Source: Octopus vulgaris
Taxonomy: Eukaryota
Assembly (NCBI GenBank): GCA_951406725.2
Contig: OX597820.1
Coordinates: 97,464,001-97,528,000, forward strand
Direction of reading: 5' to 3'
DNA: 64,000 nucleotides
Positions within the stretch are counted from its first letter, which is position 1; every line of letters starts with the position of its first letter. The notes beneath the pieces are model-generated. The model was not told the origin of the DNA. It worked only from the letters and a program-made list of their open reading frames with translations, and did not search any database. This document shows positions 3,238-62,472 of the stretch, piece by piece. Made by a program: the position numbers and the translations under genes.

Positions 3238-3429
3238 TGTGTGTGAGTATGGATATGTATGTGTTTATACATGTATACATGTTTACACGAGTGTGTGTGT
3301 ATATATGTATGTTTATAAATATGTATTTGTTTATATATAATATATGTAAGTTTACACGTTTGTATATGATATATAGATGGATGTGAATGAAAGTATGTGA
3401 GTGAGTTGGTATGTGTCTATGTGTATACC

Positions 3430-3660
3430 TATTTCTTTATTATCCACAAGGGGCTAAACATAGAGGGGACAAACAAGGACAGACATAGGTATTAAGTCGC
3501 TTACATCGACCCCAGTGCGTAACTGGTACTTGGTTTATCGACCCCGAAAGGATGAAAAGTAAAGTCGACCTCGGCGGAATTTGAACTCACAACGTAACGG
3601 CGGACGAAATGCCGCTAAGCATTTCGCCCGACGTTCTAACGTTTCTGCCATCTCGCCGTC
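3430..3660 (-). mobile_element. tRNA-derived SINE family 2 (Nin-domain-like)
   Basis: Reverse complement of ...gagttcaaattccgccgaggtcgacttt(g/a)c(c/t)tttcatcctttcggggtcgataaa..., which recurs many times in the window. Confidence 0.85.
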
Positions 3661-3839
3661 CATGTGTATACCTTTAGACATATTTATCTGTGCTTCCATG
3701 TATGTAATTTTCTGCGTATTTATGAACACACATACACACACGCACTTTGCATGTAAATGTGTCTATTTTGTGCCCCCAGCATGATTGTAGCTTTAAAGCT
3801 GAAACAAGTTAAAGGAAGTTTTATAATCATATAAACATG

Positions 3840-3874
<35 letters not shown>

Positions 3875-4029
3875 ACTCACACACACACACACACACACAC
3901 TCACACACTCACACACTCACACATGTTCGCATATATTTACAGACATGCGTTCAGCTACGTATATCTGTTTATCTATCTATCTATCTATGGTACTACTTGG
4001 GAACAGTGGGCCCGGTGCGCGCATCCGCG

Positions 4030-4220
4030 CTAGTTAGTCGTGACTAGTCGATCCTACAACGGCTACCTAGCAAAGTAAATAAAACACAAAATCACAAAGT
4101 AAATTTTTTTTAAAAACAAAGTACATAACACAAAAAACACAAAGTAAGGATCGACTAGTCATGACTAGCTAAGCTCCAGCATGGATCGACTAGTCATGAC
4201 TATCTATGCTCCAGCATGGC
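4030..4220. repeat. Inverted repeat (tagtcgtgactagtcgatcct / aggatcgactagtcatgacta) with a local direct duplication of the right arm
   Basis: Arms at about 4036-4056 and 4147-4168. The right arm plus ctccagcatgg is repeated at about 4182-4220. Confidence 0.7.
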
Positions 4221-4625
4221 CATAGTTTAATGACTGAAAGAAATAAAACATAATTAGGGTTATTCCGAAGTACATGTTACCGAGACAATCACACAATCAT
4301 ATAAACCCTGTACATGAAAGGAAACCTATTACACACACACGCACGCACACACACACACACACACACAGACACACACACACACACACACACACAAACAAAC
4401 ACATGCACACGTCTTCATAAACATATACAAACACACACAGGCACGCACACACACACACATACATGCACGAACGCACACACACACACATATAACATGACAG
4501 TGGTGGAAACTTAATCACACTACAGACACGTGTTTTCAACGTCTTAAGAATGCGAATTGGGTGGCGGTTGAATGACGAAATGTCATGTGTGTATGTATGT
4601 ATGTATGTATGTATGTATGTAGAGT

Positions 4626-11438: not shown

Positions 11439-11479
<41 letters not shown>

Positions 11480-11506
11480 CAATTGCAGCATGGAAGGTGT
11501 TTGTAA

Positions 11507-11548
<42 letters not shown>

Positions 11549-22864: not shown

Positions 22865-23666
22865 GACATGTAGATATGTATGTATGCACGTACTGCCTAC
22901 GTATACACACACCTGCCTTTCTTCAAACGTTTCAATATTTCATTTTCATATTATTTGTATGGAAATAATTCTAATCCCATGTTGTGTCGTTTATGCATTT
23001 GGTCCTCTTATAATCTTTTAAAGATTATTCTATTATGCTCTCCAGGGACTAAATACTAATAAATCTTTCCAACCGTGGTCATCCTGCTTCCCGTTTCCTG
23101 CAGTCGATATACTATTAAATCATGCATAGAAGGTACTTTGATGTGTTTTGTTGATTGCCAAACCCGCTGCTATTTCTACAAGGTAGGATGAAGTCGAGGA
23201 TTCCTCGTTAGTTCTTGGAATTATGCTATTTAACCCTCCAAGTCAACCCTGATCTCTGATCAACCAAAACTTTGATCAAATATGTATCATCTGGTCAATT
23301 TGTGTACACACACACGCGCGCGCGCACACGCACGCACACACACACAAACATACACATCTGCACATATTGATGCATACATATAGATAGATAGATAAATAAA
23401 TAGATAGATAGATAGATAGATACATACATACATACATACATACATACATACATACATACATGCAAAAATACCCTGCTGACGTTGCTGAAATTCCAATGAA
23501 CGGATCAAGATTAGAAACCGGCTCTTTCTCTATTGGCTAGAAATCTTGAAATAAAACTGGATAATGACATACACACATGAATGCATGCAGACTAGATAAC
23601 ATCATTGCATGCATACTTACACACTGATACACATACGCATGTTTTAAACTAATATACTATAATCCG

Positions 23667-23809
23667 GGATGCAGCACGGACTTTGTCAGTGAACAGGTCG
23701 CGGTCTTAAAGCGACGAAAATATTTTGACAAATTAAACTTAAATGTTGAAGTGAATCGAACAGCTTTTGTGTGTTTCTTAAATGGCTTACAAACACCTTC
23801 CACGCTGCA
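23667..23809 (+). mobile_element. 143-bp retroposed insertion with a 13-bp TSD, carrying a G3:C8 hammerhead (23682-23732)
   Basis: TSD atactataatccg at 23654-23666 and 23810-23822. Motif reads tttgtca-GTGAACA-g-gtcgc(ggtcttaaa)gcgac-GAA-aatatt-T-tgacaaa. Confidence 0.75.
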
Positions 23810-24446
23810 ATACTATAATCCGCTATTTCTCAAAAGGGAAAGAGCCAGTGAAAATTAAGAAGGGATCCAACAAATTGTTGTGGTATATAAAAGAATTAAA
23901 CATTTTATATAAAAAAATTCAACTTTTTAACATTGTCCAACACCAGGGCGAAGGAAGAAGAATTAATTATATGGAGTCAAACTCTATGACAGGGGTGTTA
24001 AACATACACGGCTCGCAGAAATGCTTACTCTGGCTCCCTGCTAAATTATATACGCAAAATTAATAATTTTTAATACTGGGAACAGTGGGTAGGTTAGGAG
24101 ATCATAGAGTTTCTCTAGGTTGAACCACTACCCTCCCTCCAAACCGGGAGATCACAGCTCCAACTCTATGGACATGTGATGTGAACGTTACTGCAAAGTT
24201 TCACAAGAAGGATCATTCAAGACTAAGCAATGTGTTGGAGACATAGAGATAGATCAAGAACGAGGTGATTGGATAATGTCCATTGTCTTGGTTGGTCAGC
24301 TTTGGAATTAATCCATGAAATCTATTGATTGCTGTTGCTTCTGATAGGATGCCGCGGAGGAGATTCCCGAGGGCTCTACCCACCATGATCTCCTCAGTAA
24401 TACCGTCTAGAGAAGCTGGATGGATGGATGAATTTTAAAATATTTT

Positions 24447-25816: not shown

Positions 25817-25838
25817 CACACACATATATATATATATA

Positions 25839-25986
25839 CAATTGCAGCGTGGAAGGTGTTTGTAAGCCATTTAAGAAACACACAAAAGCCGTTCGATTCA
25901 CTTCAACAAACTTAAATGTTCAAGTGAATCGAACGGCTTTTGTGTGTTTCTTAAATGGCTTACAAACACCTTCCACGCTGCAATTG
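25839..25986. repeat. Perfect 65-bp inverted repeat of the same family as 23667-23809
   Basis: Arms 25839-25903 and 25922-25986 are exact reverse complements. Another fragment lies at about 11479-11511. Confidence 0.9.
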
Positions 25987-26037
25987 CTTTCGTTCCAGCA
26001 CACGATCTCAGATCAAATCACTTGCTATGCGAGTACA

Positions 26038-26116
<79 letters not shown>

Positions 26117-28026: not shown

Positions 28027-28768
28027 GATATTCACAACCTAAAAGGCGGCGAGCTGGCAGAAACGTTAGCACGCCGGGCGAAATGCGTGGCCGTATTTCG
28101 TTCGCCGTTACGTTCTGAGTTCAAATTCCGCCGAGGTCGACTTTGCCTTTCATCCTTTCAGGGTCGATAAATTAAGTACCAGTTACGCACTGGGGTCGAT
28201 GTAATCGACTTAATACCTATGTCTGTCCTTGTTTGTCCTCTCTGTCTTTAGCCCCTTGTGGGTAGTAAAGAAATAGATATTCACAAACTAGAAGGCGGCG
28301 AGCTGGCAGAAACGTTAGCACGCCGGGTGAAAAGCGTGGCCGTATTTCGTCTGCCGTTACGTTCTGAGTTCAAATTCCGCCGAGGTCGACTTTGCCTTTC
28401 ATCCTTTCAGGGTCGATAAATTAAGTACCAGTTACGCACTGGGGTCGATGTAATCAACTTAAACCGCTTGTCTGTCCTTGTTTGTCCCCTCTGTGTTTAG
28501 CCCCTTGTGGGTAGTAAAGAAATAGATATTCACAACCTAGAAGGCGGCGAGCTGGCAGAACCGTTAGCACGCCGGACGAAATGCGTGGCCGTATTTCGTC
28601 CGCCGTTACGTTCTGTGTTCAAATTCCGCCGAGGTCGACTTTGCCTTTCATCCTTTCGGGTCGATAAATTAAGTACCAGTTACGCACTGGGGTCGATATA
28701 ATCGACTTAATCCATCTGTCCTTGTTTATCCTCTCTGTGTTTATAGTCCCTAGTAGGTAAAAAAAAAA
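28027..28768 (+). mobile_element. Three head-to-tail SINE family 2 copies, 249-bp period
   Basis: Units start with gatattcacaa at 28027, 28276 and 28525. Confidence 0.9.
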
Positions 28769-43530: not shown

Positions 43531-43602
43531 TTCCCATGCCGGGAATCGAACCCGGGCCGCCTGGGTGAAAGCCAGGAATCCTAACCACTAGACTGTATGT
43601 AT
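43531..43602 (-). pseudogene. tRNA-Glu(TTC) copy with eroded 5' acceptor strand
   Basis: Minus strand gtctagtggttaggattcctggctTTCacccaggcggcccgggttcgattcccggcatgggaa. D, anticodon and T arms are intact; positions ~1-9 are replaced by (CATA)n; no CCA. Confidence 0.85.
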
Positions 43603-59174: not shown

Positions 59175-59420
59175 GTAAGGTCGAAAAAGACGTAACTCGA
59201 AATGACGTAAGAGGAGATGTGCCTGTATAGTAAAAGTAACACACCTTTTTTCTTAGGATTCCTAGACTATGATAAAAATGATACAAATTTAGTTCTTGTT
59301 GATAAACCCATGGCGTAAGGTCGGAAAGGACGTAACTCAAAGCGACTTAAGTTGAGGTATGCCTAAATAGTGAAAGTAACACTTTTTTTTTCCGGGATTC
59401 CTAGACTATAATGAGAATGA
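59175..59420. repeat. Diverged 140-bp tandem duplication
   Basis: gtaaggtcg...gacgtaactc...gattcctagactat at 59175 and 59315. Confidence 0.75.
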
Positions 59421-60011
59421 TAATCTACGTAAATCTGCTAGATAAGAACTTGTCCCTGCTGATAACCCAGTTATATCTCTGCTTGGTGCAGGCTTATCAT
59501 GTTAACTTTAACGGAAAATTATGCTATCTGATTAGCTATCCATCTACTGGACTTTAAAAAAAAAATTGACTATCAATCAGTTTGTTTTATCTCAACTTTA
59601 TTTACGTTTATATTCGTTCCTGCTACAAGCTCAAGCCGTGAAATTTTGGGTTTAGGGTTAGTCGGTTATATCGATCCCAGTGTTCAACTGGTACTTATTT
59701 TATCGACCCCGAAGAGTTGACAGGCAAAGTAGACCTCGACGGAATTTGAATTCAGAACATAGAGACAGACGAAAAGACCGCAAAGCGTTTTGTCCGACGC
59801 ACTAACGATTCTACCTGCTCACTGTCTTGTTTGCGTTTATAATATTAGAGATAAGATGAGGCGATGTGTTGGCAGAATCGTTAGGACGGTGAGTATTAAG
59901 TTGTAATAAGTTAAGTAAATTTTAATTAATTAAAATTAGAATGTAGTGGGTGCGGGCAGCGAGTCTAGTCTTTAGTGATATTACGAAAAACCCGATAATG
60001 ACTTACACACA

Positions 60012-60071: not shown

Positions 60072-60335
60072 CCCTTATTTCGCTCTCGCGTCTCATGTTT
60101 GATCTTTGACCTCTGGCCGAAATCAGATCGCCATGTTGATTCGTTAGCTACTGCACGCATTTTTTCTCTCCTTCTTTCTGTGTATTTCTCTCTCTGTGTA
60201 TCTTTCTGTTGAAGAGCGTAGGCTCGAAACGTTAAAGACTTGTTTTATTTATATTTCCTGAGCGCCATACTAATACAATTGTTCGTTTGTTTTCCACCTG
60301 CCTTCGTCTTTTGTTTATTTTCATAAAGCTTCCCG

Positions 60336-60381
<46 letters not shown>

Positions 60382-60613
60382 TGTGTGTGTGTGTTCGAAG
60401 TCAGGACGCCATGATAGATCGTTAGCTCCTACACGCATTTTTTCTCTCCTTGTTTCTCTCCTTGTTTTTTTTCTGTGTATCTTTCTGTCGATGAGCGTAG
60501 GCTCGAAACGTAAAAGACTTGTTCTATTTCTATTCCTGAGCGCTATACTAATACATTTGTTTGTTTGTATTCCACCTGCCTTCGTCTTTTATTTATTTTC
60601 GTAAACCTTCCCG

Positions 60614-60617
<4 letters not shown>
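60070..60617 (+). mobile_element. Two tandem family-B hammerhead-like repeats separated by (TA)n; motifs at 60201-60238 and 60480-60517
   Basis: tcttt-CTGT(T/C)GA-(a/t)-gagc(gtag)gctc-GAA-acgt-(T/A)-aaaga. The downstream ttcctgagcg..atactaatac is shared with family A. Confidence 0.65.
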
Positions 60618-60696
<79 letters not shown>

Positions 60697-61344: not shown

Positions 61345-62472
61345 CTCATGGCATGAACGACATACTCTACTGATTTAATTTTATTATGTATAATTAATTA
61401 TAATTATAGATCGTTAAAAGAAGTGCCCCAGCGTGGCCGCAGCCGAATGTCTGAAGCCATTTATAGAGAATATGTGAAGTAGGAACACTAGAAAGCTTTC
61501 GGGAACTATTTTTCTTCTATTTTTTAAATTGTGATTGGACTACGGCCATACTGGGGCACCGCCTTGTCGAATAAATTGACACCAGTACTTATTTGTTTTT
61601 TAAGGCCTATTTATTCTATCATGCTGTTTGCTAAACCATGAAGTTACGGGAACGTAAACCAGCCAGTACCGGTTTTCAAGCACAAAAACGAAGTCATGCA
61701 TGCATACGTACGGAATCTTCCGTCGAAGATGACATGTAAGTGTTCAGTTTTTGCTGAACTATTTGCACAGATGATATGTTTATAGTGGTCAAATGTATGT
61801 GCTGTACATTAGTCCACTCCCTCCATCAACTCGACATTGTCTGAACATGTGCACAAGAACGAAATGGGGTCGCAGGGTAACGTGAAATGAAGAGTTTTGC
61901 TCAAAAATACAACGCGCGCTCTGTCCAGGAATCGAACCCACGGTCAAGCGATTGTGAGTGTAATACCCTAACCACGATACTTTCTCTATCCGTCTATTAT
62001 CCTGAACCGCTAACTCGAGCGGTGCTTCAGATTTGCTCAAAAATACAACGCGCGCTCTGTCCAGGAATCGAACCCACGGTCAAGCGATTGTGAATGCAAT
62101 ACCCTAACCACGATACTTTCTCTATCCGTCTATTATCCTGAACCGCTAATTCGAGCGGTGCTTCAGATAAATTACTAACACAAAAGACGCATGCGCGCGC
62201 ACACACACAGGTGATATTACATCAAAATATTAATTATAATTATATACATTCTCAATAAGGCGACGAACTGGCGGACTCTGTCCTTCAATCCTGCGACGAA
62301 TCGGCTTCCTGCTCAAGGAGAGTGTTGTAATCTCGGTTACTCATACGCCATGGAAACCGGGCAATAGGATTTACATGTGGGCGTGTTTGTGTGTATACAT
62401 ATATATACATACATATGTATAGTCATAAGAATGGAGTCAAACCAAATAGTAATATTTTGAAATCATTTAATA
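61121..62472. repeat. ~190-bp dispersed direct duplication (61121-61313 and 62278-62472)
   Basis: Near-identical blocks offset by ~1157 bp. Confidence 0.85.
61896..62167 (-). repeat. 136-bp tandem duplication covering the tRNA-like head of a third SINE family
   Basis: Units 61896-62031 and 62032-62167. The minus strand carries tggttagg...gggttcgattcc A/B boxes. Confidence 0.8.

Follow-up and report, generated by a model that had tools for sequence, protein, structure and literature searches.

A G3:C8 hammerhead variant in the 5′ leader of a high-copy Penelope-like element of Octopus vulgaris

The pair between positions 3 and 8 is a tertiary contact of the active hammerhead core. For metazoan Penelope-like elements (PLEs), Cervera and de la Peña (2014, PMC4209133) describe minimal hammerheads (min-HHRs) with an extra base and a palindrome, in solo and opposite-strand copies. 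In the accessible text and figures of that study, U3-A8 is the only 3-8 covariation reported, none of the 56 aligned motifs has G3, and the descriptors were unable to find one; the accessible part of Perreault et al. (2011, PMC3088659) also gives U3:A8 as the sole natural covariation reported. G3:C8 forms have been engineered (PMC3884650, PMC8495972). For PAc, the Poseidon element of Anolis carolinensis (Frangieh et al. 2024, PMC11167929), a single G8C or C3G change abolishes cleavage and the double change restores it partly; cleavage requires protein, and neither cleavage nor hammerhead mutants affect insertion. A natural G3:C8 pair was not found in the literature searched, a set outside which most subscription papers, including Lünse et al. 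2017, fall.

The window analyzed here is a stretch of 64,000 nucleotides from Octopus vulgaris (contig OX597820.1, positions 97,464,001 to 97,528,000). A sequence-only reading had proposed that it holds a natural G3:C8-swapped hammerhead inside a 143-bp unit bounded by an exact 13-bp direct repeat. Repeat, core, 7-bp stem I, 5-bp stem II and palindromic stem III are all present in the window letters as claimed; an extra base, G23696, had been overlooked. The features, all on the plus strand, are as follows.

23654..23666, +: left target-site duplication (TSD) copy, 13 bp, an exact repeat of 23810-23822
23667..23667, +: extra G, absent from the element's genomic upstream sequence and likely cap-derived
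23668..23781, +: 5′ leader of the PLE transcript (distal pseudo-LTR end); the same sequence ends the 5′ and 3′ pseudo-LTRs in loci L127-L130
23682..23732, +: PLE-type minimal hammerhead motif (type I), from letters, folding and the PLE min-HHR consensus available in PMC4209133
23682-23688/23726-23732, +: stem I, 7 bp
23689..23696, +: variant core G3-U4-G5-A6-A7-C8-A9 plus an extra nucleotide (G) before G10.1, from pattern counts and the sister lineage
23697-23701/23711-23715, +: stem II, GTCGC/GCGAC, 5 bp
23702-23710, +: loop II
23716-23718, +: G12-A14
23719-23724, +: palindromic AATATT, stem III
23725, +: U17, with the predicted cut after it
23782..23811, +: first ten codons of the PLE ORF, up to the internal reverse-transcription (RT) start site A; ORF start as in L128 and L129
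23810..23822, +: right TSD copy, whose first two bases (AT) overlap the element end (family continuation ATTG)

The core GTGAACA occupies 23689-23695, with G3 at 23689, C8 at 23694 and A9 at 23695, and the extra G lies between A9 and G10.1. Under the min-HHR criteria of PMC4209133, the motif has what a type I PLE hammerhead has: stems I and II around the core, G10.1-C11.1, an extra base after position 9, palindromic 15.2/16.2 and loop 3, A15.1-U16.1 and H17. The canonical core C3-U4-G5-A6-N7-G8-A9 is what the window family lacks; positions 3 and 8 are nonetheless Watson-Crick complementary, as G3:C8 here and as C3:G8 in a sister lineage. The extra base, the palindromic stem III and U17 are all usual in PLE hammerheads. 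Rfam reported no hammerhead in the window at the gathering threshold or at E<=10, and all 56 rows of Fig. S3 in Cervera and de la Peña begin CUGA or UUGA, which bears out the earlier expectation that CUGANGA descriptors miss this family.

Folding predictions for the 145-nt RNA give pair probabilities of 0.64-0.92 for stem I and 0.98 for stem II, and the 56-nt motif folds with z = -2.4 (4/200 shuffles equally good). The 2-bp stem III is unformed in the predicted monomer ensemble, where a G3·U17 wobble lengthens stem I (p=0.62). We also considered the whole unit as a TIR/MITE; a UGCAGC/GCUGCA stem closes the 145-nt RNA, but we rejected this reading because the overall fold is no better than shuffles (z -0.42; z 0.19) and the long-range pairing varies among five natural copies.

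The 143-bp bounds describe the window insertion well, with the qualification that the AT starting the right-hand repeat also fits the element's continuation, so that the duplicated target is 11-13 bp. They do not describe the element: most copies run ~60 nt beyond the window copy's end, 499 retain upstream sequence, and the autonomous form continues into an ORF. What had been read as a separate family is instead a fragment of a PLE pseudo-LTR plus the start of its ORF. Long copies read ...CTCAG-ATG at the 5′ boundary. The start codon lies inside the unit, and the single common variant in 23782-23811 is synonymous; another phase of the unit stays open for 70 codons, but this frame was discarded, since a common variant breaks it and the true ORF is the MAYKH frame.

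Unit and ORF are continuous in L128 and L129. In L129, positions 3304-4426 duplicate the 3′ end of the locus at 98.4% and then enter the ORF, as a pseudo-LTR does; this 1.1-kb pseudo-LTR ends in the unit, with G3:C8, directly before the ORF. In locus L094, a 530-aa ORF encoding RT motifs and GIY-YIG lies 1.1 kb upstream of the unit, and L130 has a 1,025-aa open frame (PF01541, E=1.8e-5). Both ORFs carry DKS-G and YVDD, RT motifs identified by eye, and PF01541 at the C-terminus; the Pfam RT model matched neither. Relatives are annotated ‘reverse transcriptase domain’, the nearest named protein being a hypothetical RT-domain protein of Octopus vulgaris (55%). A CQSNCAVC cluster, an extra Zn-finger of the form CX2-5CxxC, lies in the linker before the GIY-YIG domain, and Craig et al. 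describe such a linker Zn-finger between RT and EN as marking the Neptune and Nematis clades. Judged by these motifs, the parent is an EN+ Penelope-like element with a Neptune/Nematis-type linker, the placement following from the linker motif. The family is a recently active, autonomous PLE. Its pseudo-LTRs carry long ACAT/AC microsatellite tracts whose length varies between copies (L128 7170-8820; L129 3304-4220), so the element spreads simple repeats besides inserting into TA repeats.

Elsewhere in the window, a second insertion of the same family at 25838-26040 is head-to-head, with arms that end at site A and near site B and are both truncated downstream of the hammerhead, and a 37-bp scrap of the family lies at 11478-11514. 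Further observations are a partial tRNA match at 43539-43594 on the minus strand (41.7 bits, model positions 9-63, anticodon loop TTC) and short tandem arrays of 136-278-bp units at 28027-28743, 59175-59445, 60118-60656 and 61896-62168, which resemble other interspersed repeats.

G3:C8 is the state of the family rather than a peculiarity of the window copy. A DNA search of the 2.8-Gb genome gave 2,138 candidates, 40 of them scored, and a 21-nt core-plus-stem pattern with positions 3, 7 and 8 free matched 6,272 times genome-wide; the reversed pattern, used as control, matched 0 times, so the core-plus-stem pattern is not a product of chance. By subtraction of the other classes, 5,747 of the 6,272 matches (91.6%) are G3:C8, a figure biased to younger copies because the patterns require exact flanks. 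Both G3 and C8 are therefore consensus, the point that the sequence-only reading had put up for checking. The remaining classes are G3·G8 (203), G3 with A8 or U8 (146) and non-G3 (176); C3:G8 is absent among the first 100 of the 176 non-G3 matches listed. Among 173 classed arms, unselected at positions 3 and 8, G3 occurs in 172 and C8 in 158, the latter divided by subfamily into 8/9 (oldest), 46/53 (old) and 104/111 (young). The same core appears in loose contig ends from runs labelled organisms A and C. A C3:G8 subfamily within the family was sought and rejected, as 19 of 20 loci inspected from 343 hits belong to the sister lineage. On C16, at 0.6-6.5 Mb, at least 19 G3·G8 copies are clustered, probably by segmental duplication, and inflate the genome-wide G3·G8 count.

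The sister PLE lineage, found by protein search, shares 34-38% amino-acid identity over the N-terminus and has open frames of up to 1,312 aa. Upstream of the homologous ORF start, its motif reads C3:G8, keeps the extra G and U17, and has a stem II altered in a compensatory way; an older sister branch reads CUGAAGA and has 14/16 bases around the core in common with the family. Both partners of the 3-8 pair have thus changed while the other invariant core bases stayed, and on this sequence comparison the contrast between G3:C8 and C3:G8 is a true natural covariation. The sister motifs themselves are off canon, with C9 in one and an imperfect stem I in the other, which suggests that PLE hammerheads are under loose constraint. 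Within the sister lineage, a very young family (L212-L221, for example L219 1353-1400) has many open frames of ~1,310 aa and a hammerhead with C9; a donor-like GTAAGT site lies ~30 nt upstream of the core both there and in the older branch L131-L150. We also noted U3:A8 hammerhead-like motifs in L091 (2457 and 5926, plus strand; 8403, minus strand), L101 (2770, plus) and L076 (206, minus), those of L091 close to another RT/GIY-YIG-like ORF. Counting the C3:G8 sister lineage, this genome may hold the 3-8 pair in three Watson-Crick forms.

The earlier proposal that the double change reflects selection on catalysis has evidence on both sides. In its favor, subfamily changes spare the core and stems: columns with variants at 10% or more number 6/9 in loop II and 8/62 in the rest of the leader, as against 0/12 in the core, 0/10 in stem II, 0/6 in stem III and 1/14 in stem I, the last a U-A to U·G change that keeps pairing, although the columns are few and the power of the comparison is modest. 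Together with the C3:G8 sister, this pattern favors selection on the active fold. Against it stand three observations. Copies span the predicted cut site, so their RNA templates were uncut. Nor do 5′ ends accumulate at the cut: 16 of 30 loci from 133 matches were junctions there, 5 of them explained by stem I microhomology, compared with 3/30 loci from 519 matches at the control start +2 and 11/30 from 289 at +7, giving an estimated ~50-75 ends at the cut, not above ~50 at +2 or ~105 at +7. Finally, mismatched G3·G8 copies are in roughly fivefold excess.

This excess is specific to one change. Counted by hand from listings covering C1 to C12:28.8 Mb, C8 to G occurs 63 times and its mirror, G3 to C, 11 times (p=5e-10, with copies that are not independent); the other mirror pairs are balanced (C8 to U and G3 to A, 53/62; C8 to A and G3 to U, 23/27). 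Position 8 is accordingly the least stable core position. A reading of G3·G8 as an intermediate clade between C3:G8 and G3:C8 came from a first tree (6 changes) that had position 8 included; with position 8 masked, the clustering almost disappears, and the oldest sampled subfamily is already G3:C8 (8/9). In the masked tree, G3·G8 copies are scattered, with 17 changes against 20.7 when shuffled (19/500). By this distribution, G3·G8 copies are recurrent and not one relic clade, arising either from source elements with the mismatch or from a mutational hot spot.

The ends of the copies record how they were made. Among 92 arm ends at 57 sampled loci, 83 fall at two narrow sites, 35 at site A, which is the window copy's end, and 48 at site B, ~60 nt further on, at codons ~10 and ~30. 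At 32 of the 57 loci the copies are inverted, as head-to-head pairs, and 27 of these 32 (counted from the listing) have one arm per site, one tailed and one short; an inverted 5′-truncated copy with a ‘tail’ on one end only is what Craig et al. describe for EN+ PLEs. Non-simple TSDs of at least 8 bp, mostly 11-14 bp, occur at 14/57 loci against a null of 2%; one of the 14 is really a microsatellite, and many other loci lie in TA repeats where a TSD is unreadable. A TSD is thus typical of the family and points to target-primed insertion, as earlier deduced from the window copy.

As for the 5′ ends, 63 of the 76 arms that lack genomic upstream sequence begin at the A or G of AG-ATG. An extra G is found at 18 of 34 free junctions (p=2e-5 against 20%), these being the remainder after removal of 29 explained by the partner arm or the TSD, and the window copy, with G23667, is among them. 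Cap copying is a known behavior of retroelement reverse transcriptases, and the extra G is likely a copied RNA cap. In head-to-head pairs, loop II type differs between the arms in 9/35, a rough fraction because part of the sample was picked for likeness to the window, and an age marker is concordant in 29/30. Since arms of different subfamilies often occur in one pair, two RNA molecules serve in many events, making a partner available for a hammerhead that depends on a dimer. These copies would preserve traces of how PLEs work in vivo: internal priming at two sites, one for each strand, run-off at an end that is likely capped, and a pair of RNA templates for each event. Neither cap-G nor two-template signatures in PLEs are reported in the literature searched, with most subscription papers outside its scope.

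We consider it probable that the window insertion is the 5′ leader of a PLE plus ten codons, and that the family-wide G3:C8 state likely keeps the 3-8 pair intact in a ribozyme of weak activity, which would need a second RNA or the element's protein for cutting. The two parts of this reading differ in strength. For insertion, we are confident of the following scheme. The transcript would start at AG, with the hammerhead in a leader of ~115 nt followed by the ORF. The element's protein would bind two capped RNAs and nick both target strands ~12-13 bp apart, and reverse transcription would be primed internally, with site A serving one strand and site B the second, as for PAc in vitro (PMC11167929). 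The cDNA would then run off at the capped 5′ end ~145 or 210 nt away, yielding thousands of short copies, of which the window copy would be a solo site-A product. For the ribozyme, we lean modestly toward a motif that is inactive on its own and likely cleaves weakly once palindromes are paired or the protein aids folding, with loss of the cap. With a 2-bp stem III and a G3·U17 wobble extending stem I, the monomer is predicted to be inactive; in the integration complex, the AAUAUU palindromes of two RNAs could pair and allow a cut after U17, 58 nt from the cap and 56 nt short of the AUG. Cleavage would sever the cap from the ORF and could retire the RNA after copying; cutting would be dispensable for making the insertion.

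A bolder version makes G3:C8 an active, trans-only ribozyme of the integration complex. Two capped RNAs, attested by paired arms of different subfamilies that both reach the cap, would be held by a dimer of the RT-endonuclease; stem III would form from their palindromes, and cleavage would strip the ORF of its cap and put the templates out of use. We regard this version as doubtful. If it were true, PLE hammerheads would be a two-RNA switch tied to integration and not a means of releasing the element from a precursor, and one genome would be using the 3-8 pair in all three of its Watson-Crick versions.

The opposite possibility, that the same element carries a motif catalytically dead or negligible in activity, with a fold retained to bind protein, pair RNA or control translation, and with G3:C8 a tolerated drift state, has several observations in its favor: copies derive from uncut RNA, no excess of ends marks the cut site, G3·G8 is in excess and spread across several subfamilies, and the G3·U17 wobble has p=0.62 in the monomer fold. 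It is also in keeping with published work, since PAc insertion is unaffected by hammerhead mutants and no RNA-seq ends were found at the PAc cut site (PMC11167929), and since metazoan PLE hammerheads are poor cutters in vitro (PMC4209133). However, both 3-8 partners became complementary while U4, G5, A6, A9, G12, A13, A14, A15.1 and U16.1 stayed unchanged, and such a joint change amid constant core bases is not predicted by a fold kept for its stems only. On balance, we view a dead motif as unlikely.

Other alternatives concern the boundaries of the copies. The 5′ boundary resembles a splice acceptor, for which reason the cap reading is our interpretation: the 499 copies with upstream sequence keep a branch-point-like ACTAAC, a pyrimidine tract and AG right before the unit, and the intron of Drosophila virilis Penelope ends at the 5′ side of helix I (PMC4209133). 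Copies could then derive from a spliced RNA with a tiny first exon, or from an RT stall at the junction, and the extra G could be exon-derived or added by RT. But the copies start in two registers, both taking in 1-2 bases of the would-be intron (AG or G), and upstream of them stands one G followed by unrelated letters, whereas a spliced exon would leave a longer common sequence; we find this origin improbable. Less credible by far is the original framing, a free-standing retrozyme- or SINE-like unit of 143 bp released by its own ribozyme. The clean TSD and the thousands of short copies would suit it, and animal retrozymes have been proposed to derive from pseudo-LTRs (bioRxiv 10.64898/2026.07.22.740005). 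The unit is, however, continuous with the PLE ORF start, its ends lie away from the cut site, and its copies occur singly or head-to-head rather than in head-to-tail arrays cut at U17. A non-LTR retrozyme is a non-autonomous head-to-tail unit delimited by its ribozyme; here the ends lie at the presumed cap and the RT start sites.

Taken together, the window holds a genuine natural variant, common to its whole family, of a ribozyme already known, in an element of a familiar kind. The 3-8 transversion swap, which in the laboratory gives a partial rescue, is here the established condition of a high-copy animal retroelement with recent activity, and current descriptors and Rfam consequently undercount PLE hammerheads. 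With a long open ORF, a C3:G8 sister and natural G3·G8 mismatches in one genome, the octopus offers a test system for the role of the PLE hammerhead.

Among described systems, the metazoan PLE min-HHRs of Cervera and de la Peña (PMC4209133) differ at the core, which has C3 or U3 in 56/56 rows of Fig. S3 and G3:C8 here; their extra base has the consensus H, with G in one row, and is G here. Natural U3:A8, seen by Perreault et al. (PMC3088659) and in the Cercyon PLEs of Schistosoma, is likewise a Watson-Crick 3-8 covariation in nature, but it involves two transitions that keep the pyrimidine-purine order, whereas G3:C8 involves two transversions that flip it. Animal non-LTR retrozymes (PMC7229834; bioRxiv 10.64898/2026.07.22.740005) are also short, high in copy number, hammerhead-bearing and tied to PLE pseudo-LTRs; they are described as tandem, non-autonomous units, in contrast to the dispersed by-products of an autonomous element described here, with ends off the ribozyme cut. 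PAc (PMC11167929) resembles the octopus element in having a ‘tail’ defined by two internal RT start sites close to the ORF start, cutting of both strands, AT-rich targets, a hammerhead adjoining the start codon and insertion from uncut RNA. By contrast, the PAc pair is C3:G8, with C3G/G8C a laboratory rescue, whereas here G3:C8 is natural, the leader contains the entire motif (with the predicted cut 56 nt ahead of the AUG), the tail measures ~60 nt and a Cys cluster of Neptune/Nematis type sits in the ORF linker.
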